30,609 nucleotides of DNA from a virus. Lineage: Duplodnaviria > Heunggongvirae > Uroviricota > Caudoviricetes. Positions 9,670 to 30,609 of this stretch are shown here, piece by piece. A program made the translations under genes and the position numbers. Below the pieces are notes generated by a model. That model ran no database searches, was not told where the DNA came from, and saw only the letters and a list, made by a program, of their open reading frames with translations. The stretch's first letter is position 1; every line of letters begins with the position of its first letter. The stretch lies in IMG/VR virus record IMGVR_UViG_2529292886_000008. One strand, 5' to 3'.

Positions 9670-9673
9670 ACCA

Positions 9674-11639: not shown

Positions 11640-11810
11640 GCTTACCTGCACAAAAGTGCACAAATTTGCACAATTTTTTTGAACGACTTTTTGCCCTTCC
11701 GGCCCGCGTGGCGGCTGGATCCGTCAGGGATCCGTGCGTGCACAAAAAAACGCGTTTTTTCTGCGCGCAGGTGACGGGGGAACAGCCCGCGTTTCAGGGG
11801 GTAAATAGCA
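11640..11810. other. Probable cos / packaging-site region (by synteny), repeat-rich
   Basis: Non-coding block downstream of portal gene as in P2. Three TGCACAA copies at ~10-11 bp spacing (11646-11680), GGATCCGT direct repeat (11718-11737), perfect palindrome AAAAAACGCGTTTTTT near 11747-11762. Exact cohesive-end sequence not verified. Confidence 0.3.
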
Positions 11811-12046
11811 TTCCATGAACGATGTCGCAGCGACACAACAGAATGGCTGTATTTCTCACACTGAGCGTGAAAAAGACGTGAGGGCTTTTGATTTGATGGG
11901 GTGACAGATAAGGCAGTCAAAATCGCACTGAGGCGGCAAGAACATGCAGTCAACGCGGTGGGATTGCGTAAGAGCCTGATCGTCGATGATGGCGATAAGC
12001 TGGAAGACGTCGTGAAATTATCTGATTGATACAGGAGCTGGAGAGT

Positions 12047-12071
12047 CGGGGCATAAATTTTTTATGCCCCG
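12047..12071 (-). terminator. Stem-loop downstream of portal gene (terminator candidate for leftward P-Q operon)
   Basis: CGGGGCATAAA / TTTATGCCCCG 11-bp inverted repeat around a T-rich loop, about 27 nt after the Q stop. Confidence 0.4.
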
Positions 12072-12097
12072 GCGAAGCAGCAGACAAGCGAAGCGCG

Positions 12098-13144: not shown

Positions 13145-14895
13145 CAGAACTCCATAACCGTGAAACGCTCGTTTTCTCCTTCGCCGCCAATCGGTTCGTT
13201 AATGACAGCAAGCATGGTTGCCCACGCAAGGTCGCCGTGGCTGATCCCCCTCGCGCGGTCCGTTTCGTAAGTGATAAAGCCGCCCGGTGTTTTCACCTTA
13301 CGCACGGCGTTAAAGGCCGCGACCAGCTCGCGTTCGGCGCGATCGTATTCCCACCGCCCGGCACGCATTATTTGCAGCATTTTCAGTACCAGCGACCGTT
13401 TTGATGACAGCGTGAAGGTGTACGGGATGGCAGCAGGGAAAAACCGTTTCACTATCTGATAAACAGCCTCCCCGTTCCCGCCCGTCACATCAATGCCGAT
13501 GTGTTCCACGTTGTAGCGATACGTGAACTCTTCAATGACTCTGGCCTGTTCTTCAAACTCCAGCCCCTGAACGCGTCGCGTCTCCACCGTTCGAAAACGG
13601 CCACCAGGAACAGCCGGAGGAACCACCACGGACACAGCGCCGCTGTCACCGTTGCCACTGCTGCCGTTTGCGTCATACCCAATCCATACCGGACGATTCC
13701 CCATCGGGCGGGGAGCAAAAGGTTTCCAGTCTTTCCAGTCGTCGTATCCGTCAACACCACAGCCAATCAGGATATTCAGGTTAAATGCCGATTCCCCTTC
13801 GCGGACAAACTCACACATATAGAGATTGAGGAACTCGTCTTCGGTGTTTTCATCACGAATTTCGTCGATATCGGTGTGTTTCCAGCCGTGATTAACCACA
13901 TCTTCCAGCGTGACAATTTGCCGCCACGTCCGGTCAGGGCAGATAAGCCCGTTATGCAGCGTTTTCCAGTCCACAGAAAAACGCTGGCGTTTATGCGAGG
14001 CCTTTTTCTCGTTCCAGCGGTCGCCGTTCCAGTAGGCGTATGCCTCGTGCGTTTCGGTGGATGGCGTGGAGAAGTAGGTGCGCCGCAGTCCGCTGAGGGT
14101 TGCCATAGCGCCAGCCACCTTGCGCAGTTCAGCAAAGCGACTGACCCAGAAAAATTCATCAAAATAAAAATTGCCCGTATAGGACTGTGCCGACGCAGCA
14201 GAAGTGCCGAGAAAATGCAGCTCTGCGCCGTTGGAGAGGATGATTTTATCGCCCCCTTTCAGCTCCACATCAACTTCAGCCGCGGCCTTCTGAATAATGC
14301 TTTTAAACTGGAACGCCTGACGACGCGACGCAGACAAAAAAATCTGGTTACGCTGGTAAGGTTGCGCCACATCGTCACGCAGCGCCATCAGCAGAGCTTC
14401 CTGTGCAAAATACCAGGTCGCCCCAATCTGTCGGGATTTCAGGATCATCCTGTTACGTATCCCGGCTTCCCTGCAAAGAGTCAGGGAGTCAAACCAGCCC
14501 CGCTGATGCCACTCCAGCCTGCTGATGATTTTTTCCCGCAGTGCGGCAATCTGTTCCGGCGTGAAATGATTTTTAAGTTTTTTCGCCCGGCCTTTCTTTC
14601 CTGTGGCCGTCGCATCCGGCTGGCCATCATGCAGTTTTTTAAGCTGCCGGGTCAGCAGGTCTATTTCCTTGAAGTCACCACCTGTTTTATTCTGTTTTTC
14701 AGTAAGCTGGATGAGGCGCGCATCGATGGACTGCGTGACACGCTGCACGGGTGGCGTTTCATCCCACTGGTCGCGTTTTTTCCACGCATAAATCGTGTTC
14801 GGGTTTATTCCCATCAGACGTGAGATTTCTGCGGGCGGATAACCCTGCCAGTAAAGTTGCCGCGCACGCTGGCGCACAAAAGCGTCCTGAATCAT
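13144..14895 (-). CDS. P: Terminase large (ATPase) subunit (P2 gpP-like)
   Basis: 583 aa; divergent from O-N-M; N-terminal HTH-like segment and ATPase/nuclease-sized body; synteny with P2 P-Q. Confidence 0.85.
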   Translation of the reverse strand: MIQDAFVRQRARQLYWQGYPPAEISRLMGINPNTIYAWKKRDQWDETPPVQRVTQSIDARLIQLTEKQNKTGGDFKEIDLLTRQLKKLHDGQPDATATGKKGRAKKLKNHFTPEQIAALREKIISRLEWHQRGWFDSLTLCREAGIRNRMILKSRQIGATWYFAQEALLMALRDDVAQPYQRNQIFLSASRRQAFQFKSIIQKAAAEVDVELKGGDKIILSNGAELHFLGTSAASAQSYTGNFYFDEFFWVSRFAELRKVAGAMATLSGLRRTYFSTPSTETHEAYAYWNGDRWNEKKASHKRQRFSVDWKTLHNGLICPDRTWRQIVTLEDVVNHGWKHTDIDEIRDENTEDEFLNLYMCEFVREGESAFNLNILIGCGVDGYDDWKDWKPFAPRPMGNRPVWIGYDANGSSGNGDSGAVSVVVPPAVPGGRFRTVETRRVQGLEFEEQARVIEEFTYRYNVEHIGIDVTGGNGEAVYQIVKRFFPAAIPYTFTLSSKRSLVLKMLQIMRAGRWEYDRAERELVAAFNAVRKVKTPGGFITYETDRARGISHGDLAWATMLAVINEPIGGEGENERFTVMEF

Positions 14896-15049
14896 TGCTC
14901 CCCCTGAGTAATTACAGGAAGATTACCCGCGCGCGAAACCGTTCTCCTTAACCCCCTGTTCTGGCCGTTTTCTTACAACAAAAGCCCTTTGTATCAGCCT
15001 GTTACGCTTTGCCATCATGACTGAAGAACCAGTCAGAGGGGCAAAAACT
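14896..15049. promoter_or_regulatory. Divergent late promoter region (P-Q leftward, O-N-M-L rightward)
   Basis: Intergenic between divergent late operons; partial dyad TGT..ACA around 14957-14980, reminiscent of Ogr-type activator sites in P2 (spacing not verified). Confidence 0.35.
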
Positions 15050-15886
15050 ATGGCTAATGAAAAAAAGACATCCCGCAAAAAGTTTCGCGTGGCTGTCTCC
15101 GGATCAACCGTTGATGGCCGTGAAATCAGTCCGGTGCATCTGCGTGAAGCCGCCGAGAACTTCAACCCGGATGTTTACGCTGCCCGCGTGAACGTTGAGC
15201 ACTATCTCTCGCCATGCCCGTCAAGCGAATTTTCCGCAATGGGCGATGTCACCGCGCTGAGTACGGAAGACATTACGGAAGGTCCGCTGGCCGGACGTAC
15301 TGCGCTGTATGCAGAAATCGAACCGACCGAGCGCATGAAGCAGCTTGTCGCTGACGGCAAGAAAATCTATTCCAGTATCGAACTGCACCCGCAGTTCTCC
15401 GTTAACGGGCGCGCCTATCTGGTCGGGCTGGCGATGACCGACACCCCGGCAAGCCTGGGCACTGAGCGCCTGAAATTCACGGCACAGCAACGTCAGGCGG
15501 TAATGACGTTCAACAGTGTCCAGGGTGAAGCGCCGCTTATCTCCGAAGCCATCGAGTCTGAAATCATCGAAATGGCAGAACAACGCCAGGAAGAAGGCAC
15601 CCAGTGGTTTAACCGCGTAATGGGGATTATTGGCCGTGGCCGCAAAGCGGATGACGCCAGTTTTTCCCGTATTCAGGAAGCGGTGGAAGGCGTCGCAACG
15701 TCACAGGCCGACATTATCGACCGTTTTAATGTGCTGGAAACCCGCCATCAGCAGGACCGCCAGAAAATTACGTCACTGATCACAGAGCTGACAGCACTGA
15801 AGGAAAAACTGCGCACGCAGGACGGCGATCCGCAGAACCGGTTCACCGCAACGGGCGCAGCCTCCGACCAGCTGGCTGACTTCTGA
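15050..15886 (+). CDS. O: Capsid scaffolding protein (P2 gpO-like)
   Basis: Start chosen at ATG 15050 with AGAGGG RBS; N-terminus KKFRVAVSGSTVDGREIS parallels P2 gpO FRIGVEGDTCDGRVIS (from memory). Confidence 0.85.
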   Translation: MANEKKTSRKKFRVAVSGSTVDGREISPVHLREAAENFNPDVYAARVNVEHYLSPCPSSEFSAMGDVTALSTEDITEGPLAGRTALYAEIEPTERMKQLVADGKKIYSSIELHPQFSVNGRAYLVGLAMTDTPASLGTERLKFTAQQRQAVMTFNSVQGEAPLISEAIESEIIEMAEQRQEEGTQWFNRVMGIIGRGRKADDASFSRIQEAVEGVATSQADIIDRFNVLETRHQQDRQKITSLITELTALKEKLRTQDGDPQNRFTATGAASDQLADF

Positions 15887-15909
15887 TAAGACAAAGGAGC
15901 AAATTTTTT

Positions 15910-16962
15910 ATGAATCTGGTGATGTCAGATATTACCCGCAACAAGCTGGGTTGCTATATGGCGCAGCAGGCGTCGCTTAATAATATCCCGGTTTCTGCGC
16001 TGGTATCGCGATTTACCGTAGAACCCTCGGTGCAGCAGCGTTTTGAAAACGCCTCAAAGGAAAGCACCGAATTTACAAAAAGAATTAACGTGATCGGCGT
16101 GACCGACCAGAAAGGCGAAAAAATCCTCCTGGATACCACAGGACCGATTGCGCGCACGAATACCAGTTATGACGGCACAAAACGCCGTAACCCGAATAAC
16201 GTGGTTGATCTGAAAAACCGCAAATACCAGTGCGAACAGGTGAACTACGACACGTTTATTTCATATCCGCAGCTTGATGCCTGGGCGGCACATCCTGATT
16301 TTCAGTCCCGCATCAGCGTACAGATTGCCCGACAGGTGGCGCTTGACCGCATCATGATCGGTTTCAACGGCACGTCTCACGCGGATGAGTCCAACTTCAG
16401 CACCAACAAGCTGCTTCAGGACGTTAACGTGGGCTGGCTGGAGCACATCAGAACCGACGCCAGCGAGCGCGTTATGAATGACGTGACGCTGACCTCCCGC
16501 AACATGGACAACACCGTGGCGCACGCGGGTAAGTATGCGAACGCTGATGCACTGGTACAGGACGCACGCTCATCCCTGCTGGATGAATGGCACAAGGAAG
16601 CTGACGACCTCGTGGTGATTATGGGGCGCAACCTGTTTAACTCGCTGCGTCTGCCCGTGCTGAACAGCATCAGCGGCCAGAATCCCAATGCGGAATTACT
16701 TGCCGGGCAGCTCATCCTGTCATCGCGCACCATTGGCGGGCTGGGCGTGTTCCTTGCGCCGTTCTTCCCGGATGCAACGATGCTGATCACCTCGTTCAAC
16801 AACCTGTCGATTTACTGGCAGAAAGGTTCAATGCGTCGTCTGATGAAAGACGAACCGGAATACAACCGCATCGCCACCTACCAGTCCATCAATGACGCTT
16901 ATGTCGTTGAAGACTATGGCAAGTGCGCGATGGTCACTGGCCTGAAGTTCGCCGACAGCTAA
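15910..16962 (+). CDS. N: Major capsid protein (P2 gpN-like)
   Basis: 350 aa; motifs FTVEPSV, KYQCEQVNYD, VEDYG match P2 gpN pattern from memory; AAGGAG RBS. Confidence 0.9.
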   Translation: MNLVMSDITRNKLGCYMAQQASLNNIPVSALVSRFTVEPSVQQRFENASKESTEFTKRINVIGVTDQKGEKILLDTTGPIARTNTSYDGTKRRNPNNVVDLKNRKYQCEQVNYDTFISYPQLDAWAAHPDFQSRISVQIARQVALDRIMIGFNGTSHADESNFSTNKLLQDVNVGWLEHIRTDASERVMNDVTLTSRNMDNTVAHAGKYANADALVQDARSSLLDEWHKEADDLVVIMGRNLFNSLRLPVLNSISGQNPNAELLAGQLILSSRTIGGLGVFLAPFFPDATMLITSFNNLSIYWQKGSMRRLMKDEPEYNRIATYQSINDAYVVEDYGKCAMVTGLKFADS

Positions 16963-16971
16963 TCAACTCAC

Positions 16972-16990
16972 GGCGGGCATCATGCCCGCC
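16972..16990 (+). other. GC-rich palindromic hairpin between capsid gene N and terminase small subunit M
   Basis: Perfect 19-nt palindrome GGCGGGCAT-C-ATGCCCGCC; no T-run; possible partial terminator or RNA-processing element. Confidence 0.35.
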
Positions 16991-17007
16991 TGTAACGGAG
17001 AGAAAAA

Positions 17008-17808
17008 ATGATTACTCCTGCACAGCAACACTGGCAGAACGTGATGGCACAGCGCGCAGGCCGGGCGAATGAAGGCGTGGACCACGCCGCGCGTACCGCG
17101 CATGAAGAGGTGCTGTATCGTCTGCGTCTGGCACAGGCCCGGCTTAAGGGCGTACAGGCCAGAAGCGCCAAAGCCGCCATCAAAAAAGAGTTGTTGCCGG
17201 ACTTTTCCGGCTGGATTGAGGGAACGCTGGAGGCTGACGGCGGGCAGCAGGATGAAGTGATTGCCACGCTGATGGTGTGGGCGATTGACTGCGGCGATCT
17301 TCCGCTGGCGCTGCGTATTGGTGCGTATGTGGTCCGTCACAACCTCATCATGCCGGATAACTTTGGCCGTACTGCTGCCACGGTACTGACCGAAGAAATC
17401 TGTAATCCGGTACTGACGCAGGCCGGGACGGATGCCGACGCGGATTTGTCCGCCTTTATCGAACCACTGGATACCCTCCGGGAGATTGTCACCGACCAGG
17501 ACATGCCGGACGAAGTGCGCGCCAAATTATGCAAGGCGTGCGCCTTTGCCCGCCGTGGCCTGACCGATGCGGACAGCATGGCCCTGTCACTGAAGCTGCT
17601 GCGCGAAGCGATGCACCTGAACCCGAACGCAGGTGTGAAACGCGAGATTGCAACCCTTTCCCGCGCCCTGAAAAAAGCCGATTCCGCAGCCGCACCAGAA
17701 GATGCCAGCACACCGCAGGCGCAGGACGAAAGCAGCAAAAGTAAAAAGACAACGCGGAAGCCTGCAACACGAAAAACCACCGCGACGCAGAAGGCGAAGC
17801 GCGGTTAA
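17008..17808 (+). CDS. M: Terminase small (endonuclease) subunit (P2 gpM-like)
   Basis: 266 aa, position after capsid gene, basic C-terminal tail; GGAGAG RBS. Confidence 0.8.
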   Translation: MITPAQQHWQNVMAQRAGRANEGVDHAARTAHEEVLYRLRLAQARLKGVQARSAKAAIKKELLPDFSGWIEGTLEADGGQQDEVIATLMVWAIDCGDLPLALRIGAYVVRHNLIMPDNFGRTAATVLTEEICNPVLTQAGTDADADLSAFIEPLDTLREIVTDQDMPDEVRAKLCKACAFARRGLTDADSMALSLKLLREAMHLNPNAGVKREIATLSRALKKADSAAAPEDASTPQAQDESSKSKKTTRKPATRKTTATQKAKRG

Positions 17809-17909
17809 CGACTGACCCCGTCAGCGGGCGGCGTGCGCGGTGTTCCGGTTTGACTCCGTGACCGTTTACACCGCGCACCCACCGCCCGATTTTTTCAGGA
17901 GTGAACCCC

Positions 17910-18404
17910 ATGAGTATGGTTGCCAGAACCAACCCCGGACCCGCAGAGGACGACATCACCGATACCGATGATGGTGATACCCGTATTTCAGCGGGTGCAT
18001 TCTGGCCGGATATTGTGCTGCGTGAGCTGCGTCTGGCGGTACGACTGCCGGGCCGTGTGACCACCTCCCGCCTGCTGCATACCGCCACCGGGGCCGTGGC
18101 ACACGTTACCCGCGAGCTGGAAGCGTGGCAGCAGGAACAGCAGGCGGCTGGCCATCAGACGCTGGCCGATGTTCCGGCACCCGTAATTAACGGAGAAAGC
18201 GTCAATCTCTGGCACTGGCGCAATGCGGTTTACACCGCCACACGCGCCCTGATTCTGGAGCGTTACCGCGATGCGGACACAACGGACAAGGGCGACCGCC
18301 GGGCGGACGCACTGGATATACAGACATCGGATTTGTGGCGCGATGTGAGCTGGGCCATCTCTGACATTCTGTGCCGCCCGCGAATCTTTGCGGAGTTGTG
18401 CTGA
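17910..18404 (+). CDS. L: Head completion / stabilisation protein (P2 gpL-like)
   Basis: Start at ATG 17910 (AGGA RBS); motifs FWPDI and DLWRDVSWAISDI parallel P2 gpL FFPDID and ELWRDMRWAV (from memory). Confidence 0.85.
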   Translation: MSMVARTNPGPAEDDITDTDDGDTRISAGAFWPDIVLRELRLAVRLPGRVTTSRLLHTATGAVAHVTRELEAWQQEQQAAGHQTLADVPAPVINGESVNLWHWRNAVYTATRALILERYRDADTTDKGDRRADALDIQTSDLWRDVSWAISDILCRPRIFAELC

Positions 18405-18604
18405 TGAAAGTGAAGGCACTGGAAGGCGACACCGTGGATTCGCTCTGTTTCCGGTACTACGGCACGACGCAGGGCGTCACCGAAAAGGTGCTGGATGCCA
18501 ACCCCGGACTCTGTCAGCAGGTATTTCTGGACGCCGGGCAGGACGTGGAGATGCCGGAGCCGGAGAAGAAGAAACGAGAAATGATTCAGTTGTGGGGGGA
18601 GTAG
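18404..18604 (+). CDS. X: Tail protein X (P2 gpX-like)
   Basis: 66 aa; LEGDTVDSLCFRYYGTTQGVTEKVLDANPGL matches gpX pattern; ATGA overlap with L stop. Confidence 0.8.
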   Translation: MKVKALEGDTVDSLCFRYYGTTQGVTEKVLDANPGLCQQVFLDAGQDVEMPEPEKKKREMIQLWGE

Positions 18605-18606
18605 CA

Positions 18607-18849
18607 GTGAGCACCATTCAAACAGGGATCACAGAGCAGGTTATTGCGTGGCTCTTTGACCACCTGCCAACGGTGTATGCAGTAGGCGCGGCGGTCAGCA
18701 TTTCCGCGCTGATGAGTCTTTATGACGGACGAACACTGGTTCAGACCGTAACGGGATCGCTGGCGTGCGGCGTTCTTGCCATGGCCGTGGCCGGGTCGTT
18801 GCGCTTCTTCGGGTTTCCTGAAGATGCCGTGACGTTTATCGGCGCATAA
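18607..18849 (+). CDS. Putative holin (P2 gpY position)
   Basis: GTG start with GGGGGA RBS 7 nt upstream; 80 aa with two hydrophobic helices; position preceding endolysin. Confidence 0.55.
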   Translation: MSTIQTGITEQVIAWLFDHLPTVYAVGAAVSISALMSLYDGRTLVQTVTGSLACGVLAMAVAGSLRFFGFPEDAVTFIGA

Positions 18850-18926
18850 ATCGGTTTTATGGGTGCAGAGAAAGCACGCGACAAGGTTATTGCGGCCTTT
18901 AATCGCAGGGTGAAGGAGAAGGACGA

Positions 18927-19319
18927 ATGAGCAACACATTTAAATTCAGCAGCCGGAGCGAAAAGAATTTGCAGGGCGTAAATCCTGATCTGGTGAAAGT
19001 GACCCGACGGGCACTGGAAATCTCGGAAGTGGATTTTGGTATCACCGAAGGGTTGCGCAGCCGTTACCGCCAGAAGCAACTTGTGGCCACGGGTAAGAGC
19101 CAGACCATGAACAGCCGCCACCTTACGGGGCATGCCGTGGATGTTGTGGCTTATATCGGCAGCCAGGTGTCATGGGAATGGCCGCTGTACGAAAAAATCG
19201 CAGCAGCATTCAGACAGGCCAGCCGGGAACTGAATATTCCGGTGGAATGGGGCGGCGACTGGAAGACCCTGAAAGACGGACCGCATTTTCAGTTACCGCA
19301 CGGAGTTTATCCGGCATGA
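18927..19319 (+). CDS. Endolysin, peptidase M15-type L-alanyl-D-glutamate endopeptidase
   Basis: Motifs SRHLTGHAVDV and DGPHFQL typical of M15 zinc peptidase endolysins; replaces the lysozyme-type gpK of P2. Confidence 0.75.
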   Translation: MSNTFKFSSRSEKNLQGVNPDLVKVTRRALEISEVDFGITEGLRSRYRQKQLVATGKSQTMNSRHLTGHAVDVVAYIGSQVSWEWPLYEKIAAAFRQASRELNIPVEWGGDWKTLKDGPHFQLPHGVYPA

Positions 19320-19723
19320 AGCTCTGGCCCACGCTGGGCGTCGCTTTTCTTCTGATTGCCGCCTGGGGAGCATCCATGCGTCTGTCGTGGTCACTGGGCC
19401 GGGAGAACGCCAGAAACGAAGCGCAGGCCAGCACCCTGAAAAGTACCGTCGACACCCTGAATATCATCAGCGCCGGGGTACAGGATATGCAGCAGGTGCT
19501 GGCACAACTCCGCGCGGAAAATCAGCAACGCAATCAGGACGGAGAGGTAAGACGTGAACAGCTACGCAACGATATTGCAAAAGATGAATGCGCCCACGCT
19601 TTGCCTGACGCTCGTTTTACTGACAGGTTGCGCAGGCACGCAGAACGCGCCACGGCCAGCGCCGTCAGTCCGGCTTATACCGCAGACGCTGACCATACCG
19701 GTAATGCCTCCCCCCTTCCCTGA
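19316..19723 (+). CDS. Inner-membrane spanin (Rz / LysB-like)
   Basis: ATG at 19316 overlapping endolysin stop; N-terminal TM helix, then coiled-coil region; followed by embedded lipoprotein ORF. Confidence 0.7.
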   Translation: MKLWPTLGVAFLLIAAWGASMRLSWSLGRENARNEAQASTLKSTVDTLNIISAGVQDMQQVLAQLRAENQQRNQDGEVRREQLRNDIAKDECAHALPDARFTDRLRRHAERATASAVSPAYTADADHTGNASPLP

Positions 19724-19874
19724 TACTCCCACATGGGGAAATCTCGGTATATGGGGCGACCGCCTTCTGGATGCACTGGAAACCTGTAACGCGGATAAAC
19801 GGGCCATTGAATTACTGGAACAGCGCAGGCTGCAACGACTGAACAACGAGGACAACAACCATGCTGAAAACTGA
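19554..19874 (+). CDS. Outer-membrane lipoprotein spanin (Rz1 / LysC-like), overlapping i-spanin in a different frame
   Basis: Lipobox LVLLTGC with Pro-rich mature region; GTG start at 19554 with GGAGAGG RBS (alternative ATG at 19584). Confidence 0.65.
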   Translation: MNSYATILQKMNAPTLCLTLVLLTGCAGTQNAPRPAPSVRLIPQTLTIPVMPPPFPDTPTWGNLGIWGDRLLDALETCNADKRAIELLEQRRLQRLNNEDNNHAEN

Positions 19875-20328
19875 TTCCCTGCGTGAAGCCATGACCCGTT
19901 CATGCCGATGGTGTCAGGCCAACCCGGAAAAATTCACCATTTTCGTGGAGAGCGGCAACATTGAAACGACCGGAGAAACGCCCTCGTTTGTTTACCGCTA
20001 TCAGATGGTGATGTTTGTCATGGATTACGCCGGGGAGCTGGACGACCTCACGCTGCCGCTACTGGCGTGGTTATCCGAAAATCAGCCGCAATTGTTGCTC
20101 AATCCGGAGCGTAATCAGGACATCAAATTCTCCGCCGTTATCAATGACGATGACAGCGCAGATCTCCTGTTTACGCTCCCTCTGCGGGAACGCGTTCGCA
20201 TCACGCGCAGCAGTCAGGGGACACCGCAGGCAGAACACCTGCCGGAGCCAAAACCCCGTCTGCCATCTTCCGAAGGCGACTGGTCGCATGTATTCCAGGA
20301 TGTGACGTGGGGTGAAAGCGATGGATAA
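19861..20328 (+). CDS. R: Tail completion protein (P2 gpR-like)
   Basis: 155 aa, synteny after lysis cassette; overlaps spanin stop. Confidence 0.75.
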   Translation: MLKTDSLREAMTRSCRWCQANPEKFTIFVESGNIETTGETPSFVYRYQMVMFVMDYAGELDDLTLPLLAWLSENQPQLLLNPERNQDIKFSAVINDDDSADLLFTLPLRERVRITRSSQGTPQAEHLPEPKPRLPSSEGDWSHVFQDVTWGESDG

Positions 20329-20956
20329 GGCATTCACCCGCGTGGATGAAACCTTTGAGGCTATCCGCGACAGCCTGAATCAGCAGGCCATCAATAACAT
20401 CGCCAGAAAGCTGGCACAGGATTTACGCCGCGCCCAGCAGGCGCGTATCCGGTCACAGAAAGCGCCGGACGGGACCGCGTGGACACCACGCAGACGCCGC
20501 GTAACCCGGATACAGGAACGCATTCGCTTTATCTGGAATAACGAAGCACGCACGCTGAAAAACTGGCATCACGACACGGGGAAATACGGGCGAACCATTA
20601 CCGGGTGGGATGAGGATAAAAACAATATCCGCACGTTTTATCGGGATGACATCGACCGTTTTCTGGAAATACGCACCCGGCGCATCAACCAGGACAGCAC
20701 CAGGCGCGTCCCCATGTTCGTAAAACTGCGCACCGCCCGCTACCTGAAAGCCCGTGCAGATGCTTCCAGTGTGACGGTGGGTTACAGCGGCGTGGCCGCA
20801 CGTATTGCCCGCGTTCATCAGTTCGGTGAGCGCGATCAGGTTGCGCCGGGCATTTTCACCGATTACCCGGTACGTGAGCTGCTGGGTATCAGCCAGGCAG
20901 ATGAGCGCCTGATTTATAACACGGTGCTGGGCCGGATTGCGGAGGCTGTACGGTGA
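20312..20956 (+). CDS. S: Tail completion / virion morphogenesis protein (P2 gpS-like)
   Basis: Motifs NNIARKLAQDLRR and ARIARVHQFGERD match gpS pattern (from memory); longer than P2 gpS. Confidence 0.75.
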   Translation: MKAMDKAFTRVDETFEAIRDSLNQQAINNIARKLAQDLRRAQQARIRSQKAPDGTAWTPRRRRVTRIQERIRFIWNNEARTLKNWHHDTGKYGRTITGWDEDKNNIRTFYRDDIDRFLEIRTRRINQDSTRRVPMFVKLRTARYLKARADASSVTVGYSGVAARIARVHQFGERDQVAPGIFTDYPVRELLGISQADERLIYNTVLGRIAEAVR

Positions 20957-21534
20957 GCGCAGAACTCATGCGACTGCTGAGCAATATCATCCGCACCGGG
21001 ATCATCTCTGAAGTTGATGAGAAGTCCTGGCGCGTGCGCGTTCGCAGCGGCGAACTGGAAACAGACTGGTTGCGCTGGAACACCACGCGCGCGGGAGCCT
21101 TCAATGTGTGGCTGCCGCCATCACCAGGCGAACAGGTGGTAATTGCCTGCATTGGCGGCAACCCGGAAACCGCCATGATAATTGGCAGCCTGTGGAGTGA
21201 TGCCAGTCCGGCACCCGGCAAAAGCCTGAAAGAAATCGTGATCAGCGCGCCGGACGGCGCGGTGTTCCGCTACGACGCGGACGCAGGCGCACTGAGCGCC
21301 AGCGGCATGAAAACGGCCACTTTACAGGCATCCGTCAGCGTGAAACTGGATACGCCCGTCGTGGAATGCACAAACCTTCTGAGAACGGCGACGCTTGACG
21401 TCACAAAAGGAGGAAAGATGAGCGGCAATATCACGCACAGCGGCGGCAACTTCACCTCAAACGGCATTACCGTGCATACGCATAAACACGGTGGCGTGAA
21501 AGGCGGCAGCGATTCGACAGGAGGCCCGCAGTGA
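20953..21534 (+). CDS. V: Baseplate spike / assembly protein (P2 gpV-like)
   Basis: 193 aa; N-terminal OB-fold-like region and Gly-rich C-terminus; synteny. Confidence 0.85.
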   Translation: MSAELMRLLSNIIRTGIISEVDEKSWRVRVRSGELETDWLRWNTTRAGAFNVWLPPSPGEQVVIACIGGNPETAMIIGSLWSDASPAPGKSLKEIVISAPDGAVFRYDADAGALSASGMKTATLQASVSVKLDTPVVECTNLLRTATLDVTKGGKMSGNITHSGGNFTSNGITVHTHKHGGVKGGSDSTGGPQ

Positions 21535-21881
21535 CAACCCGCTACACAGGAATGAATCCGGACGGGACGGGAAACCTGAACGATATGGAGCACCTGAAAC
21601 AGTCAGTCAGGGACATCCTGACCACCCCGCTGGCAAGCCGGGTTATGCGACGGGAATATGGCAGCCTTGTGCCTGATTTGATTGACGAACCCATGAATAA
21701 CACCACGCGTCTGCAATGCATGAGTGCTGCCGTGATTGCACTGACACGATGGGAACCCCGCATTGCCCTGGATGCCATCGATGTTGTCTGGAAAGCAGGA
21801 GGCCGCGCCGGGGTGACGCTGTCGGGCACTGTCATGCAGACCATGCAGAATGTTGAATTAACCATCACGCTGAGAGAGTAA
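21531..21881 (+). CDS. W: Baseplate wedge protein (P2 gpW / GPW_gp25 family)
   Basis: 116 aa; size and position between V and J. Confidence 0.85.
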   Translation: MTTRYTGMNPDGTGNLNDMEHLKQSVRDILTTPLASRVMRREYGSLVPDLIDEPMNNTTRLQCMSAAVIALTRWEPRIALDAIDVVWKAGGRAGVTLSGTVMQTMQNVELTITLRE

Positions 21882-21884
21882 ATC

Positions 21885-22781
21885 ATGCCTGCCGTTGACC
21901 TTTCCCAGTTACCGGAACCCGCCATCATAGCGGAGCCTGACTTTGAGGCAATTCTGGCTGACACAAAGGCCATGATGATTGCGGCTTATCCCGCCGAACA
22001 GCGTGAAGCCGTTTCCGCCGCGCTGGAGCTGGAATCGGAACCCCTTAACGTTATCGCTCAAACCATGTCGTTTCGTGAAATGCTGTTACGCCAGCGGGTT
22101 AACGAGGGCGCACGCGCCTGCATGTTAAGCCACGGTTCAGGGACAAACCTGGACAACCTCGCGGGCAATATGAACACAAAGCGCCTGGTTATCACTCCGG
22201 CAACGGATACCACCGACGCGGTGATGGAGAGCGACACCTCGCTGAGACTGCGGACGCAGCGGGCGTATGACGGCCTGAGTGTTGCAGGCCCGTCAGGCGC
22301 ATACGAGTATTTTGCACGCAGCGCCAGCGGTCTGGTGCGTGATGCGCGGGCCATCAGCCCGTCTCCGGCCTGTGTGACGGTTTCCATTCTGTCCACTGAA
22401 GGCGACGGCACAGCAACGGAGGCGTTGCTTAATACCGTTCGCGCCGTTCTGAATGCAGAGGATACCCGCCCGGTGGCCGACCGCCTGACGGTACAGAGCG
22501 CCAGAATCGTGACATGGCGGCTGAATGCAAAACTGTACTTTTACCCCGGCCCGGAATCCGAACCTATTCTGGCCGCGGCAGAATCGTCATTCAGGAAGTG
22601 GCTGGCTGAACAGGGGCTTATCGGTCAGGACGTGGCGTTGTCCGCCATTGCTGCCGCACTGCATGTGCACGGTGTGCAACGCGTGGAGATAATCGAACCC
22701 ACACAGAATATGGCCATCAGCGACATACAGGCGGCGCGCTGTGAGTCATTTACCATCAGCGAAGGTGGGCGCAATGAGTAA
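21885..22781 (+). CDS. J: Baseplate protein J (P2 gpJ-like)
   Basis: 298 aa; synteny. Confidence 0.85.
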   Translation: MPAVDLSQLPEPAIIAEPDFEAILADTKAMMIAAYPAEQREAVSAALELESEPLNVIAQTMSFREMLLRQRVNEGARACMLSHGSGTNLDNLAGNMNTKRLVITPATDTTDAVMESDTSLRLRTQRAYDGLSVAGPSGAYEYFARSASGLVRDARAISPSPACVTVSILSTEGDGTATEALLNTVRAVLNAEDTRPVADRLTVQSARIVTWRLNAKLYFYPGPESEPILAAAESSFRKWLAEQGLIGQDVALSAIAAALHVHGVQRVEIIEPTQNMAISDIQAARCESFTISEGGRNE

Positions 22782-23304
22782 TTCGTTGTTACCACCATCA
22801 GCCAGCAATTTCATGCGTTGTGCCGAAGCTGTCGGAGCGCGCATTACAAATATCCCGGTAGACCTCAACACGCTGTGGTCGCCGGACACATGCCCGGTGC
22901 ATCTGCTGCCTTATCTCGCCTGGGCATTTTCCGTTGACCGCTGGGATCGCAACTGGCCGGAAGAGACAAAGCGACAGGTGATTCGTGATGCATGGCTGAT
23001 ACACCGACACAAAGGGACCATCAGCGCACTGCGCCGGGCCATTGAGCCGCTGGGATACCTCATTCGTGTGTCTGAGTGGTGGGAGTTCGGCGGAGAACCG
23101 GGAACATTTACCGTTGAAGTCGGCACGCTGGACAGTGGCGTGACGGAGGAAATGTATCTGGAAATGGAGCGGTTGATTGCTGATGCCCGCCCGGTCAGCC
23201 GCCACATGACAGGGCTGAATATCATTCAGGAGATCCCGGGGGATATTTTCGCGGCGGCAGCAACTTACGACGGTGAAGTCATTACCATTTATCCGGACGA
23301 TTAA
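22774..23304 (+). CDS. I: Baseplate / tail-fibre attachment protein (P2 gpI-like)
   Basis: Start at ATG 22774; motifs [24 protein letters not shown] and [14 protein letters not shown] match P2 gpI pattern from memory. Confidence 0.85.
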
Positions 23305-23306
23305 GC

Positions 23307-25466
23307 ATGAGTACCACAACACGAAAATTTAAAACCATTATCACTGATACTGGTGCCAAAAAATTAGCTCAGGCAGCCGCGCCAGATGGTAATCCTGTCC
23401 GCCTGACTCACATGGCCGTGGGCGACGGTGGCGGCACGTTGCCCACACCAGACAGTAAGCAGACCCGTCTGGTGCATGAGGTGTGGCGACATACTGTTAA
23501 TCGCGTCATCCTGGACGCAACACATCAGAACCGCATTATTGCGGAGCTGGTTATTCCTCCTGAAACGGGCGGATTCTGGATCCGGGAAATTGGTGTATTT
23601 GATGAGCACGGCGATTTGATCGCGGTGGGCAATACTGCCGAAAGTTACAAACCAACCGTTGCCGAAGGATCCGGACGTGCACAAACATTTCGCACCATTC
23701 TGACCGTATCCAGCACTGCCACCGTGGCGCTTACCGTGGATAACACCATGGTTATGGCCACAGTGGATTACGTGAATGACAAACTGAAAGAACATGAACA
23801 GTCACGACGTCACCCGGACGCCTCGCTGACCGCAAAAGGCTTTGTTCAACTCAGTAGCGCCACCAACAGCACGTCTGAAGCACTGGCCGCAACGCCGAAA
23901 GCGGTCAAGGCAGCCTATGACCTTGCTATCGGGAAATATACCGCACAGGACGCCACTACAGCGCGGAAAGGACTTGTCCAGCTCAGTAGCGCCACCAACA
24001 GCGATTCAGAAACGCTGGCGGCAACACCAAAGGCGGTAAAGGCAACATATGACCTTGCTAACGGGAAATATACTGCGCAGGATGCCACCACAGCGCGGAA
24101 AGGCCTTGTCCAGCTCAGTAGCGCCACCAACAGCACGTCTGAAGCACTGGCCGCAACACCGAAAGCGGTAAAGACAGCATATGACCTTGCTAACGGGAAA
24201 TATACCGCTCAGGACGCTACGACAGCACAAAAAGGGATTGTCCAGCTAAGCAGCGCGACTAACAGCGCATCTGAAACGCTTGCTGCGACATCGAAAGCAG
24301 TGAAAGCAGCTAATGACAATGCGAATGGTCGGGTACCTTCTGCCCGTAAGGTGAATGGTAAGGCGCTTTCAGCGGATATAACACTGACACCGAAAGATAT
24401 TGGTACGCTTAACTCAACAACTATGTCATTCAGCGGTGGTGCTGGTTGGTTCAAATTAGCAACGGTAACCATGCCGCAGGCGAGTTCTGTTGTTTCAATT
24501 ACGTTGATTGGTGGGGCTGGATATAACGTCGGTTCACCTCAACAGGCAGGTATATCTGAACTTGTTTTGCGTGCAGGTAATGGTAATCCGAAGGGGATTA
24601 CTGGTGCTTTATGGCAGCGCACATCGGCAGGGTTTACAAATTTTGCCTGGGTCAATACATCTGGTGATACTTACGATATTTACGTTGCAATCGGAAATTA
24701 TGCGACTGGTGTAAATATTCAATGGGATTATACCAGTAACGCCAGCGTAACGATTCATACTTCACCAGCATATTCTGCTAATAAGCCGGAAGGATTAACG
24801 GACGGTTCTGTTTATTCGCTGTATATTTCGCCTCATGAACTTTATCCGGTTGGCGCACCGATCCCTTGGCCATCAGATACCGTTCCGTCTGGTTATGCCC
24901 TGATGCAGGGGCAGACTTTTGACAAATCTGCATACCCGAAACTTGCAGCCGCTTATCCGTCAGGCGTGATCCCTGATATGCGTGGCTGGACGATTAAGGG
25001 CAAGCCCGCCAGTGGTCGTGCCGTATTGTCTCAGGAACAGGACGGCATTAAATCGCACACCCACAGCGCCAGCGTATCCAGTACGGATTTGGGTACGAAA
25101 ACCACATCGTCGTTTGATTACGGGACGAAAACAACCTCACTATTTGACTATGGGACCAAAACTACCAGTAACGCCGGGAGTCACACGCATTCAATACCAA
25201 CATCAGATGGTGCAAACCAGGGGGGGAAAATTCCACTGACATCTGGGCGTCTGGCAACTCAATATACATCAGCAACAACAGGTTCCTCTGGCTCACATTC
25301 TCATACTGTAGGTATTGGTTCTCATCAGCACACTGTCGGTATTGGTGCACACACGCACTCGGTTGCGATTGGCTCACATGGACACACCATCACCGTTAAC
25401 GCTGCTGGTAACGCGGAAAACACCGTCAAAAACATCGCATTTAACTATATTGTGAGGCTTGCATGA
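23307..25466 (+). CDS. H: Tail fibre protein (P2 gpH-like) with internal fibre repeats and HxH-rich C-terminal tip
   Basis: N-terminus [25 protein letters not shown] typical of gpH; C-terminal [11 protein letters not shown]; four 44-aa repeats; HxH motifs near C-terminus. Confidence 0.9.
23838..24340 (+). repeat. In-frame tandem repeat, about 3.8 copies of a 132-bp unit, inside tail fibre gene H
   Basis: Repeat starts at 23838, 23970, 24102, 24234, encoding G(F/L/I)[33 protein letters not shown](R/Q)K. Confidence 0.85.
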
Positions 25467-26365
25467 TTACGCTCATTCTTTCTGCACCAGTAACAGAAAT
25501 GGCTGAAGCATTTAAGCGGGTATTTGCAAACGCAGATAATGTGAATATTGTCGGAAAGCCATTTGAAACAATCAGAGAATTTGACTGTATGGTAAGTGCG
25601 GCAAATAGTTTCGGCCTGATGGATGGCGGTGTTGATGCCGCCATTACCGCATTCTTCGGTACTCAGTTACAGTCCCGCGTTCAGAATCATATTCTTCGTG
25701 AATATCTAGGCGAGCAGCCTGTAGGATCTGCGTTTGTTATTGAAACGGGGCATAATCATCACCCCTGGCTGGTACATGCGCCAACAATGCGTGTTCCGCT
25801 GACAATTGACGGAACAGACGCTGTATATAACGCAACCTGGGCCGCTCTGCTTGCCATCTTTCAGCACAATAAAAACGCAACGACAGACAGGAAAATAAAG
25901 ACGGTGGTATTCCCTGCGATGGGGGCTGGATGTGGTCAGGTACCGTTTGAAAGTGTTGCCCGCCAGATGAAGCAGGCCTGGGATAACTTTAATAAAAAAA
26001 CAGAATCAATTAACTGGGAATACGCACAATCCCGCCAGTCGGCAGTATTTGGCACATATGCATACTGTCCGGGTAATTCTGTTTGCCGTTATGCGGATGC
26101 TAAATATATTGGATGCGGCGATTATCGGACGTATTGCTCACGTTCCGGGCAGGTCTGTATTAACCCTGAACATCAGGCTGATGATGTACTGATACAACAT
26201 CAGGCTAATAACCGGTTTCGCCCTGATTCGCATATACACCGGATTAATCCAGAAAATCCCGTAGGTAATGTCACCTCTGGCGCACATAGCCACAGAAGTA
26301 GCATCGTTATTGGTGCTCACACCCATACGCTCAATAAACAATATTCTGTCTCTGATATTAAGTAG
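25463..26365 (+). CDS. Macro-domain (ADP-ribose binding/processing) protein with Cys-rich and HxH-containing C-terminal region
   Basis: Macro motifs [18 protein letters not shown] and [15 protein letters not shown]-terminus [18 protein letters not shown] resembles HxH repeats in the upstream fibre tip; ATGA overlap with H stop. Confidence 0.75.
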
Positions 26366-26367
26366 AG

Positions 26368-26952
26368 GTGAACATGGATTTCAGAATGAGTGAACAACCA
26401 CGGACCATAAAAATTTATAATCTGCTGGCCGGAACTAATGAATTTATTGGTGAAGGTGACGCATACATTCCGCCTCATACAGGTCTGCCAGCAAACAGTA
26501 CCGATATTGCACCGCCAGATATTCCGGCTGGCTTCGTGGCTGTTTTCAACAGTAATGAGGCATCGTGGCATCTCGTTGAAGATCATCGGGGTAAAACGGT
26601 TTATGACGTGGCTTCCGGCGACGCGTTATTTATTTCTGAACTCGGTCCGTTACCGGAAAATGTTACCTGGTTGTCGCCGGATGGAGAGTGTCAGAAGTGG
26701 AACGGCACATCCTGGGCGAAAGATGCAGAAGCAGAAAAACTGTTTCGGGTACGGGAGGCAGAAGAAACAAAAAACAGCCTGATGCAGGTAGCCAGTGAGC
26801 ATATTGCGCCACTTCAGGATGCCGTAGATTTGGATATTGCGACGGAGGAAGAGGCATCGTTACTGGCTGCATGGAAGACATATCGGGTATTGTTGAATCG
26901 TGTTGATACAACAGTAGCAGCGGATGTTGAGTGGCCAGTCGCCCCACAATAA
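26368..26952 (+). CDS. G: Tail fibre assembly chaperone (P2 gpG / Tfa-like)
   Basis: 194 aa; N-terminal region [39 protein letters not shown] typical of the Tfa family; GTG/ATG start at 26368/26374. Confidence 0.8.
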
Positions 26953-26958
26953 AAAGAA

Positions 26959-26988
26959 AAAGCCATCGACAGAAATATCGATGGCTTT
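26959..26988. terminator. Bidirectional rho-independent terminator between convergent tfa and acetyltransferase genes
   Basis: Perfect 11-bp stem AAAGCCATCGA / TCGATGGCTTT with 8-nt loop, flanked by A-run upstream and T-rich sequence downstream. Confidence 0.6.
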
Positions 26989-26995
26989 ATGTACT

Positions 26996-27568
26996 CTATT
27001 TATACAATACAACACCACTCTTTTTAGTTATATATGTGCAGTTTGATGGTATATCTTTATTTATAAAAGACATTGCACCTATTTTTACATTATCCCCAAT
27101 TTTACGTGATAATCCAATGATGCAACAATTAGCTCCGATATCAACGTTACTACCAATTTTTACTCTTGAACTAGGCATATCACCATCTATCTGTCCAATG
27201 GTAGTATTCTGTCGTAATACCAGATTTTCACCCGCATCAACAGCAAAATGAACAACAATTCCAGCATGATGGGGAATTGTCAACCCTTTTCCAATATTTG
27301 CGCCCAATCCTATTTCACAACCAAACTTGTTAATTATTTTACTGTTTAACTTTTTGGCTGCTTTCTTATGTAATTTATTACCATTAATATACATTTCGTT
27401 AGCCAACCGCCACCAGAAAAGGAAATTCCGGTTACGCTGCTTTTTCTCTCTTAAAAGCCTCCAGATATCCATACGTTTCCGCCGAATTACTTCATGTTTC
27501 CAGAAGTTTTTTAAATTAGTAGAGTTTCCAAATAAAACAAAGTGAATTGCCATTAAGTAAGATAGCAC
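26996..27568 (-). CDS. Hexapeptide-repeat (left-handed beta-helix) acetyltransferase, CysE/WcaB-like; lysogenic-conversion-type cargo
   Basis: C-terminal hexapeptide repeats (GCEIGLGANIGKGL..IGSNVDIGANCCIIG..IGDNVKIGAMS). Strongly AT-rich. Preferred start is the GTG at 27566-27568 with a perfect AAGGAG 6 nt upstream; the open frame extends to 27601. Confidence 0.75.
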   Translation of the reverse strand: MLSYLMAIHFVLFGNSTNLKNFWKHEVIRRKRMDIWRLLREKKQRNRNFLFWWRLANEMYINGNKLHKKAAKKLNSKIINKFGCEIGLGANIGKGLTIPHHAGIVVHFAVDAGENLVLRQNTTIGQIDGDMPSSRVKIGSNVDIGANCCIIGLSRKIGDNVKIGAMSFINKDIPSNCTYITKKSGVVLYK

Positions 27569-27724
27569 GATAATCTCCTTAATTATTATTTCAGACCACA
27601 CATGTTATAAGGTTAAGAGATTATAAAATCCTGTTATTTGTTATTCAAAAACAATTTTCTGAGAAGGACATACAACAGCAAGTCGCCAGTCACCTTCATC
27701 AGGAAATTGGCGACATACGTTAAA

Positions 27725-28219
27725 TCAGAGCAGCCCCTTAACTGAGCTGGCCGCGCTATTAAGGGATGATGTCACCTTATCTTTGAAGCCGGACAGCATA
27801 TCGCTGAACGATGAGGATTGCAGGCGCTCCCGCAAATCCTCATCACAGCGTTCAAGAGTCAGTGAAAATTCTATCTTTTTCGCCTTACCGTAGCGATCAA
27901 ACTCGGAGCGGGTCGTATTCGTTCCGGTCAGGACATACATGCCGTAAATCTGCCCGACGCCATCAATCAAAGGCCAAGGACGTCCTGTATATGCCTGCGT
28001 GGTCAACAACGACAGCGACACTTCGCCACCAGTAATCTCAGGATAAAGAACACCAGAAAGAACGATGCGATCATCACCTGCACCGATATACTGCCAGCTT
28101 GCTGAACGGTTAACGCGTTCATTTTTCACATGTCGCCAGCTTTTGTTTTGCTGTAACTGCTGATGCGGCAACGTGCGCAGCTCAAAAACAAACATGCCGT
28201 AGATCATCATCATGGCCAT
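27725..28219 (-). CDS. U: Tail protein U (P2 gpU-like)
   Basis: 164 aa; pattern MMMIYGMFVFEL..SWRH..LSGVL.PEITGG..WPLIDG.GQIYGMYV..KIEFSLTLER matches gpU family from memory; tightly coupled downstream of tape measure. Confidence 0.75.
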   Translation of the reverse strand: MAMMMIYGMFVFELRTLPHQQLQQNKSWRHVKNERVNRSASWQYIGAGDDRIVLSGVLYPEITGGEVSLSLLTTQAYTGRPWPLIDGVGQIYGMYVLTGTNTTRSEFDRYGKAKKIEFSLTLERCDEDLRERLQSSSFSDMLSGFKDKVTSSLNSAASSVKGLL

Positions 28220-28225
28220 GACTCC

Positions 28226-30439
28226 TCAATCTTTATCGTAAAAACTGCCACGCCTGGCACGGGCGCGCCGTTCCATTTCTGCCCTGACCATTTCGCCGAC
28301 CAGTTTCGCCAGTTCGCGGGGATTCTGCGTAACAACGTTATGCAGATGAACATGAATTTCACCGCCAAATCCGGAGGCAACAGGCTCCCGGTTACGGGAA
28401 GTTGCAGGAACTGATGCCACTGGCGATCGTATGGCCTCCACCACCGGGCGGGAGCTGGCCGCAACAACAGGGACCAGCGCCGGAGGCAGCGGAGCCGGGA
28501 CCACGGGTGTGATATTAATTGCGGGGGCAGGCTTACTGACCTGCGCAATCTTCCGCTCCTGCCACTCCCCACGAACAGCAAGTGCGCGGGGCAGGTTCTT
28601 AAAGACAATATCGCCGGGGCCAATGCGTTTTTTTGTCTCATCAACCAGCTTACCTGTGTTATCAGCAATTTTGCTGAGTCTGCGTAGCGTGCCGGTATTG
28701 CTGTCTGTGAGAGGTTTGTTGTCTTTGGGTTTATCATCTCCGGTGCCATTGCTATTTCCCGCAGACTTCGGCGGATTGATTTTCGCAATGTCTCCCTGAA
28801 ACAGAGCAACCTTGTCCTGAAGAATGGCCGCACGTTGTGCGTCTTCGATTTTCTTGCGCGCCCTTTCCGCTTCATCCGGAAGCACACCGAGTTTTTCAAG
28901 TATCCACGCCAGCGTATCCAGCAACATTTTTGCAGGCGTCAGAACAAGCTGTAACGCACCACCAAGAACGTTACCGAATACCTCGCCAGCACTGGTACAT
29001 TTATCCAGCGTTTCCTTGCTGGACTCCATCGGTGACAGCAGCGATTTAAACCAGTTAAACACCTGGCTGATCCCGCTTCCGATTACGTCAAAAACAGGGC
29101 CAAACCGTTCAAAGGTGTCGCGCAACGGGGTCAGCCTTTCCATAATCCCGCTGAACACCCCGGCAAAGAAAGCCCTGATAGGATCCCAGTATTTCCAGAT
29201 AAGAACGGCAGCTCCGGCAAGCGCAGCCACGATAAGACCAACCGGACTGAACAACGCCCCGATAACGCCTCCCAGTAAAGAAACGGAACCCGTCACCATT
29301 CCCCATAGCGCAGGTAACACCCTGACGACATTCATTGACCGGGTAAGAATGTCAAAACCAAGACGCAGGGTGGCCAGCTTCCCGTAAAGCACCCCAATAA
29401 CCAGCGACAACGAGCCAATCGTTGCAGTCATTGCCAGCAACGCACCGCCTGCTATCAGTAGCTGGCGCGTCAGTACCGGATGGGCCTGCGCCAGCGAGGT
29501 GATTTTTTCAAGCACCCGCGTGAGCCACTGCGTGACAGAACGCAGCGGACCGTCAACCAGATCACTGATGCGAATACGAAGACCTTCCCATGCGCTGTCG
29601 AGATTTTTCAGGTCCCCATCAAGATTATCAGCCATTACTTTTGCGACGCGATCGGCCTCTCCCCTTGCCCCCTGCAATTCTCTGGTCAGTTTTTGCAGCT
29701 CTCCTGAACCAGCCGCCGCAACAAGCGTCTGCAAACCAACGAACGCCTCTTCTCCGGCGATGTCCTTGAAGAAGGAGACCTGGTCCACCTGTCCGTATTT
29801 TTGTGTCGCCTTATAGAGATCAAGCAGCACATCCTCCATCGGGCGCATTTTGCCTCTGGCGTCAGCAACTGACACCCCCAGCTCTTTCAGTGCATCAGCC
29901 GCAGCTTTTGGCGGTGATGCAAGGCGGGACAGACTTGCGCGCATGGCCGTGCCAGCATCGCTTCCGCGAAGACCATTATTGGCAAGCATCCCGGCCATGG
30001 CCGCCGCTTCTTCAAGACTGATACCAAGTTTTGCGGCAACCGGACCGGTATACTTCATGGTTTCGCCCAGCGCGCGTAAATCAGTATTGGTCCGGGTAAA
30101 TGCTGCTGTCAGCGTATCGCCCACCCGGTCCATTTGATCGGCTGTCAGGTTGAACTGTGTGAGGATATTGGAGCCTATATCAGCCGTCTCGCCGAGTTCG
30201 ACGCCACCTGCCAGCGCCATATTAAGAACACCGGGCAATGCGGCCTGAATGGCCTGCGGAGTAAAACCAGCCATTGCCAGAAAGCTCTGCCCACTGGCGG
30301 CATCACTCGCAGTAAACTGTGTTTCAGCAAGTTTTAACGCCTGCTCACGCAGCGCCTTAAACTGCGGGCTGTTTTTGTCGATTCGCGTCAGTGCCTGAAC
30401 GCGGGACATCTCTTTGCCGAACCCGATCGCAGGCTGCAA
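28226..30439 (-). CDS. T: Tail tape measure protein (P2 gpT-like); 5' end possibly beyond window edge
   Basis: 737 aa from the first in-frame start codon (TTG at 30439), helical and Ala/Gly-rich with hydrophobic central block. The frame stays open to position 30609, so the true start may lie upstream or outside the window. Confidence 0.8.
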   Translation of the reverse strand: MQPAIGFGKEMSRVQALTRIDKNSPQFKALREQALKLAETQFTASDAASGQSFLAMAGFTPQAIQAALPGVLNMALAGGVELGETADIGSNILTQFNLTADQMDRVGDTLTAAFTRTNTDLRALGETMKYTGPVAAKLGISLEEAAAMAGMLANNGLRGSDAGTAMRASLSRLASPPKAAADALKELGVSVADARGKMRPMEDVLLDLYKATQKYGQVDQVSFFKDIAGEEAFVGLQTLVAAAGSGELQKLTRELQGARGEADRVAKVMADNLDGDLKNLDSAWEGLRIRISDLVDGPLRSVTQWLTRVLEKITSLAQAHPVLTRQLLIAGGALLAMTATIGSLSLVIGVLYGKLATLRLGFDILTRSMNVVRVLPALWGMVTGSVSLLGGVIGALFSPVGLIVAALAGAAVLIWKYWDPIRAFFAGVFSGIMERLTPLRDTFERFGPVFDVIGSGISQVFNWFKSLLSPMESSKETLDKCTSAGEVFGNVLGGALQLVLTPAKMLLDTLAWILEKLGVLPDEAERARKKIEDAQRAAILQDKVALFQGDIAKINPPKSAGNSNGTGDDKPKDNKPLTDSNTGTLRRLSKIADNTGKLVDETKKRIGPGDIVFKNLPRALAVRGEWQERKIAQVSKPAPAINITPVVPAPLPPALVPVVAASSRPVVEAIRSPVASVPATSRNREPVASGFGGEIHVHLHNVVTQNPRELAKLVGEMVRAEMERRARARRGSFYDKD

Positions 30440-30609
30440 AAAACGCCCGGCAGCATAGCCGCCCGCCGCTGCCGCACCAATTGCCAGCGCACCACCTGTT
30501 TTCAGTTTTCCCGCGGTTTCCTGCGCGTGCGAATACTGAACCGCCCCGGAAATCCTGGAGACTAAACTCCCTGAGAAAGAGGTAAACAGGATGACTAAAA
30601 ATACTCGTT

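Follow-up and report, generated by a model that had tools for sequence, protein, structure and literature searches.

The tail genes T and U at the right end of a viral stretch of 30,609 nucleotides (nt) (IMG/VR record IMGVR_UViG_2529292886_000008; the window, below, is this whole stretch) lie on the minus strand, opposed to the plus-strand tail genes V, W, J, I and H. With a probability of roughly 90%, this segment, here called T'-U, is the distal end of the FI-FII-E-E'-T-U operon (the F block) of a P88-like prophage (Xuanwuvirus, Peduoviridae), and the layout is the normal one for this clade. Throughout the P88 clade, the F block lies inverted relative to P2, presumably together with a late promoter of its own, so that U converges on a tail-fibre and cargo module and FI diverges from D, which runs rightward with ogr. 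The two genes in question are as follows.

28226-30536, minus strand: tape-measure gene T, truncated at its 5' end (PhageMin_Tail, E=8.5e-55; TIGR01760, E=4e-84)
27725-28219, minus strand: gene U, tail protein (Pfam Phage_P2_GpU, E=1.5e-38)

The list of open reading frames (ORFs) and tblastn searches with P2 proteins place Q and P leftward and O through the tail-fibre assembly gene rightward. In the same searches, each late gene was found at most once, and FI, FII, E, D and ogr had no match in the window. U, whose start is set at 28213 in RefSeq, is 46% identical to P2 U, and T matches residues 176-723 only of P2 T (36% identity). The remaining part of T comprises the C-terminal ~770 codons of a 935-codon gene, with ~165 N-terminal codons gone; this relic has neither a promoter nor a start codon of its own and is annotated in RefSeq as partial, with the N-terminus missing. 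A preliminary description of this DNA had placed U and T on the leftward strand, followed by no D homolog but by a hairpin-containing spacer and an AT-rich acetyltransferase gene, and all of this was confirmed (by Pfam, TIGR01760 and minus-strand tblastn matches, by tblastn with P2 D within the window, and by the folding and base composition given below). The identity and strand of T were also correct, but not its limits of 28226-30439, as the open frame extends past the TTG at 30439 to 30535/6.

The evidence that this orientation is normal comes from related phages and from a large number of genomes. The window aligns with P88 on a single strand on both sides of the module, at 97% identity over 11647-24173 and at 90% over 27719-30536 (blastn), and the genome-wide comparison gives colinearity at 90-97% identity over 2563-24173 and 27719-30536. 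P88 (NC_026014) is a coliphage that can be induced (PMC5285337); its genes U, T, E', E, FII and FI read leftward, and D, at 33333-34433, reads rightward, followed by ogr. The same strands for U to FI, D and ogr are found in Escherichia coli O55:H7 DEC5B (tblastn with P2 proteins). The segment 25400-30609 recurs colinearly, over at least 80% of its length, in 221 complete E. coli genomes that represent many serotypes, with identity down to 93%, and the junction is thus neither strain-specific nor an assembly artefact. A probe of 1.3 kilobases (kb) across the divergent FI/D junction found one colinear place in 13 Xuanwuvirus records and, at 66-72% identity, matched Klebsiella phage 3LV2017 (Reginaelenavirus), Enterobacter phage phiT5282H (Novemvirus), Klebsiella phage ST16-OXA48phi5.4 (Reipivirus) and the unclassified Serratia phage KSP20. 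The annotations of these four phages bear out the inverted layout, which is also shown by P88, 500465-2, P884B11, phiSM and the Sakai prophage Sp13. The P88-like Citrobacter phage phiSM is known to form plaques and lysogens (PMC6456863). Among 5426 complete E. coli genomes, the FI/D junction is present in 1109, about a fifth, and the P2-type T-U-D junction in 1567. The divergent junction is present in Sakai Sp13, DEC5B and P88, and deleted in E. coli PV15-279, the strain that carries this copy.

These observations bear on the local inversion or rearrangement that had been proposed; it is taken here as a recent and strain-specific event in a prophage of the canonical P2 type, one breakpoint of which would fall within 27602-27724. 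Such an event would fit the inverted state of the block relative to P2, the absence of D downstream of U and a sharp drop in guanine-cytosine (GC) content at the spacer, although the last is accounted for by the cargo gene. However, the 221 genomes share the junction and orientation, P88 aligns colinearly with the window, four phage genera have kept the layout, and no insertion sequence (IS) element or inverted repeat lies at the block borders. A recent inversion is therefore refuted. The suggestion of a non-canonical genome organization holds insofar as the layout differs from that of P2, but it is not anomalous, being the fixed normal state of the lineage; reference phages such as P88, 500465-2, P884B11, phiSM and KSP20, among others, share the orientation.

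An F block that is still actively inverted by a site-specific invertase, in the manner of the tail-fibre segments of Mu, P1 and P88, was also considered, since in P88 the DNA invertase gene adjoins the 3' end of U, with the invertible fibre segment alongside. Against this, neither inverted repeats nor IS copies flanking the flipped block were found in P88 or DEC5B, whether at the U end or within the FI-D spacer. The search for border repeats gave only the fibre segment of P88 that is already known to invert, along with short pairs at chance level. In addition, the window holds no invertase gene, all 1109 genomes that have the FI/D junction show it in one and the same state (the opposite state was not searched directly), and D has its own ribosome-binding site behind a spacer that is conserved across genera. 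Ongoing inversion is hence hardly credible, and the lack of flanking repeats and IS elements fits an inversion that is old and fixed, not one that is recent or still active. The inverted-F-block architecture is common and long deposited. For annotators and prophage callers, a leftward F block, or a D gene apart from U, should not be taken as evidence of rearrangement in P2-like prophages.

The source of the window supports a single prophage. Over 25400-30609, the window matches E. coli O157:H7 PV15-279 (NZ_AP018488.1) at 100% identity; in that strain, the prophage lies between yecA and the tRNA-Leu gene leuZ, integrated at the leuZ 3' end. The window starts within the integrase gene, which is complete in the PV15-279 genome. 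At the same site, the Sakai annotation reads 'prophage Sp13, P2-like phage', with the layout tfa (+), acetyltransferase (-), U (-), T (-), E, FII and FI (-) and a D fragment (+) cut by IS30. Judged by its sequence, the window is the PV15-279 copy of the O157:H7 prophage Sp13, whose counterpart in EDL933 we take to be CP-933T. Sp13 has been described as a defective P2-like prophage (PMC2669165). An attachment-site (att) direct repeat of ~121 base pairs (bp), with one mismatch (exact stretches of 63 and 57 bp), is found at yecA/int and at the tRNA-Leu 3' end; this single bounding repeat delimits one element of ~37.6 kb. It had also been suggested that T and U belong to a second, inverted P2-like remnant abutting the first prophage, and the prophage is indeed decayed and riddled with IS elements. 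The single att duplication, the occurrence of late genes at most once each and the same arrangement in packaged phage genomes of 31-37 kb all refute this, and a second remnant can be given almost no weight.

The right end of the window is set by an IS element that the preliminary description had overlooked and that truncates T.

30537-30609, plus strand: left end of IS1203/IS629 (IS3 family), starting TGAACCGCCCCGG, with the ATG of transposase orfA at 30591

In RefSeq, an IS3-like element IS1203 family transposase starts at the equivalent of 30591, and 30536 is the last position similar to DEC5B, whose T is intact. Past the window, PV15-279 holds the remainder of this IS, an IS30 fragment and then, adjoining it ~2 kb beyond the window end, a truncated D of which residues ~87-384 are left. 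Compared with DEC5B, 3.2 kb have been exchanged for 2.05 kb of IS sequence. Gone are E', E, FII and FI, and with them the tail sheath and tube, as well as the FI-D spacer and the adjoining parts of T (494 nt) and D (~263 nt, ~87 codons). Of the genes sought beyond 30609, a rightward, 5'-truncated D was thus found, and E, FII and FI proved to be deleted. IS1203/IS629 inserted in T, and a deletion reaching an older IS30 removed everything from the T 5' end through the D 5' end. This leaves T'-U as a promoterless relic in a prophage copy that cannot build tails. Other O157:H7 strains are at related or intermediate stages, with IS30 in D and FI to T still present, or with IS1203 in FI. The holin gene (window 18607-18930, plus strand) carries an internal stop and is a pseudogene in RefSeq, a second lesion besides the tail deletion. 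The IS1203 end inside T at 30537 could also suggest that inversion between two oppositely oriented IS629/IS1203 copies set the orientation of the block. However, the IS lies inside the block and not at its border, the IS-free relatives DEC5B and P88 share the orientation, and the element is tied to the deletion and not to an inversion, which makes an IS-mediated inversion extremely unlikely.

The FI-D spacer suggests how the P88-like layout can work. In the annotation of P2, one activator site serves pO and pP together and one serves pF, and FI to D form one operon under pF. A strict TGT-N12-ACA expression had no match in P2 or P88; the pattern was relaxed because the boxes are imperfect (TCT...ACA, TGT...CCA). 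The FI-D spacer of the P88 clade is ~157 bp long and has one T(G/C)T-N12-ACA(AC) box. P88, DEC5B and phiT5282H each carry the form T[GC]T-N12-ACAAC in the P-O as well as the FI-D spacer, these two boxes being the only matches in the whole phiT5282H genome, and 3LV2017 and KSP20 have a perfect TGT-N12-ACA box. In P88, the box occupies 33255-33272; measured from its centre, the start codon of FI is 88 bp away and that of D 70 bp away. Transcription beginning 55 bp to each side, as in P2 pP/pO, would give leaders of ~33 and ~14 nt, and even the ~14-nt leader would retain a GGGAGGG ribosome-binding site. The spacer would then be a bidirectional Ogr-dependent late promoter, with one box ~55 bp from each start site, and the inversion would have put D beside the pF activator site, with D staying under late control. 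We slightly favor the view that the F-block inversion made a second bidirectional Ogr-dependent late promoter that drives FI leftward and D-ogr rightward; it would explain why the detachment of D from the operon costs nothing. No paper describing or testing a shared FI/D late promoter was found. It is a small, testable point of P2-family regulation and the only, mildly new, element here. A late-promoter-like box is also found inside T, at 28948-28969 (-) in the window and at 28823-28844 (-) in P88, being exact for T[GC]T-N12-ACAAC in P88 and having one mismatch in the window. It could be a chance match or an internal late promoter ahead of U.

On its other side, U borders a variable module, in which the following features were identified.

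24174-27718, no strand: variable tail-fibre/cargo module, over which blastn homology to P88 is lost (between 24173 and 27719)
25463-26365, plus strand: macro-domain ORF of 300 amino acids (Pfam Macro, E=8e-19; phrog_2613, no assigned function)
26368-26952, plus strand: tail-fibre assembly gene (Pfam search)
26959-26988, no strand: strong hairpin of 13 pairs with T-runs, between the convergent assembly and acetyltransferase genes, which looks like a terminator
26996-27568 (RefSeq start), minus strand: hexapeptide-repeat O-acetyltransferase, 34% GC (Pfam, NCBIfam, phrog_2154)
27620-27648, minus strand: sigma-70-like promoter match TTGAAT-17-TATAAT (10 of 12 positions), facing the acetyltransferase gene
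27678-27718, minus strand: hairpin right behind the U stop codon, with a U/G-rich tract after it (spacer folding), probably the end of the F-operon transcript

In the window, the module consists of a C-terminal part of H that is unlike that of P88, the macro-domain ORF, the assembly gene, the acetyltransferase and the spacer, and in P88 of a different H C-terminus, G, an alternative fibre that is invertible (and inverted) and a DNA invertase. Homology to P88-like phages restarts at 27719, six bases beyond the U stop codon. The acetyltransferase, whose longest ORF reaches 27601, is EpsC/CysE/WcaB-like, yet it scores far under every NCBIfam family cut-off. It is a cargo gene (moron); together with the end of the assembly gene, it is also found in two unrelated, larger coliphage genomes at 91-94% identity. 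The 131-nt spacer after U is structured, with a minimum free energy of -30.3 kcal/mol (z=-3.4). The promoter at 27620-27648 is a consensus match only, the count of such matches in the region not exceeding that in shuffled sequences. We infer that the interval 27602-27724 holds the F-operon terminator hairpin and the acetyltransferase's own promoter, and that it is the edge of an exchangeable cargo slot, the positional equivalent of the P2 Z/fun slot, and not an inversion breakpoint.

The macro-domain ORF sits between the tail fibre gene H and the assembly gene, its start codon overlapping the H stop codon, and the C-terminus of its product has HxH repeats resembling the H C-terminus (BLASTP, E=0.005). 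The protein could be a fibre-associated domain that binds or hydrolyzes ADP-ribose. A 17-of-20 inverted match was observed between 27689-27708 in the spacer and 26441-26460 near the 5' end of the assembly gene. It may be due to chance or be a tiny remnant of an inverted assembly gene, comparable to the one in the invertible segment of P88, but it is too short to be called a relic. PADLOC gave no convincing defence-system match for the acetyltransferase, the macro-domain ORF or the other cargo; its best matches were DarG (E=0.004) and Csx27 (E=4e-5).

Several points weigh against the reading of T'-U as part of an inverted F block with its own terminator and a late promoter shared with D. In literature searches, no paper was found that explicitly discusses an inverted F block. 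The bidirectional FI-D promoter is deduced from a motif and its geometry, the box motif is partly derived from the two sites that it then finds, and a scan of the FI-D spacer for a sigma-70 consensus found none, an outcome to be expected of promoters that depend on an activator. The loop of the hairpin after U is long and its U-tract only weak, and a simple terminator scan missed this hairpin, calling instead another small stem that overlaps the U stop codon.

Other genes of Sp13 lie further to the left in the window. A gene at 5136-5366 (+) is annotated as 'derepression protein'; it is the P4 epsilon-like gene of Sp13 that has been considered a possible cause of the unusual inducibility of this prophage by mitomycin C (PMC2669165). 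Downstream of the replication gene A, the interval 8710-9988 (+) encodes a plasmid segregation protein of the ParM type and also a partition/stability protein, the genes for which are kept in P88 and in Sakai Sp13 (stbA). These genes hint at a capacity for episomal maintenance in this P2-like lineage. At 10071-11449 (-), two AT-rich cargo genes (~33% GC) occupy the P2 old/tin position and encode a DUF4760 protein and a 280-amino-acid protein, the latter with a weak match to Csx27 (E=4e-5). DEC5B and P88 have other cargo at this position, which may be a defence hotspot.

Compared with known systems, the window is closest to P88 and its relatives 500465-2, P884B11, 520873, 503458, PhiR44_2, Chuche and Citrobacter phage phiSM, with which it is colinear at 90-97% nucleotide identity. 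In the P88 group as in the window, the stretch from H to the U stop codon is a variable slot, filled in P88 by the invertible alternative tail fibre and the DNA invertase and in the window by the macro-domain ORF, the acetyltransferase and an assembly gene unlike that of P88. The F block and D are intact in P88, whereas PV15-279 has lost FI through the T 5' end and the D 5' end. Sakai Sp13 resembles the window in its yecA/leuZ site, early region, ParM genes and the leftward acetyltransferase, U and T, and shares the IS30 in D with PV15-279. However, IS629 replaced Q through H in Sakai, and FI to T were kept with T as a pseudogene, whereas PV15-279 kept its head, lysis and baseplate genes and lost FI through the T 5' end to IS1203 and the deletion. 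The PV15-279 copy of Sp13 has therefore decayed by another route than that of Sakai.

The P2 F operon (pF-FI-FII-E-E'-T-U-D) contains the same genes, arranged alike from FI to U, with proteins that are 31-46% identical. As in P2, FI-FII-E/E'-T-U are on one strand in DEC5B and P88, and only T' and U are left in the window. In P2, the F block is co-directional with V-W-J-I-H-G, whereas in the window T and U are on the minus strand and V to the assembly gene on the plus strand. D directly follows U in the same unit in P2, but in the P88-clade relatives it lies past FI and is encoded on the other strand. Both the P2 F operon and these relatives have an Ogr-type box ~83-88 bp ahead of the FI start codon. 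In the P2 pP/pO pair, a divergent spacer of ~155 bp holds a single T(G/C)T-N12-(A/C)CA box at ~55 bp from either predicted start site. A box of this class recurs in both spacers of the P88 clade, P-O and FI-D, with a putative promoter role for the FI-D spacer.

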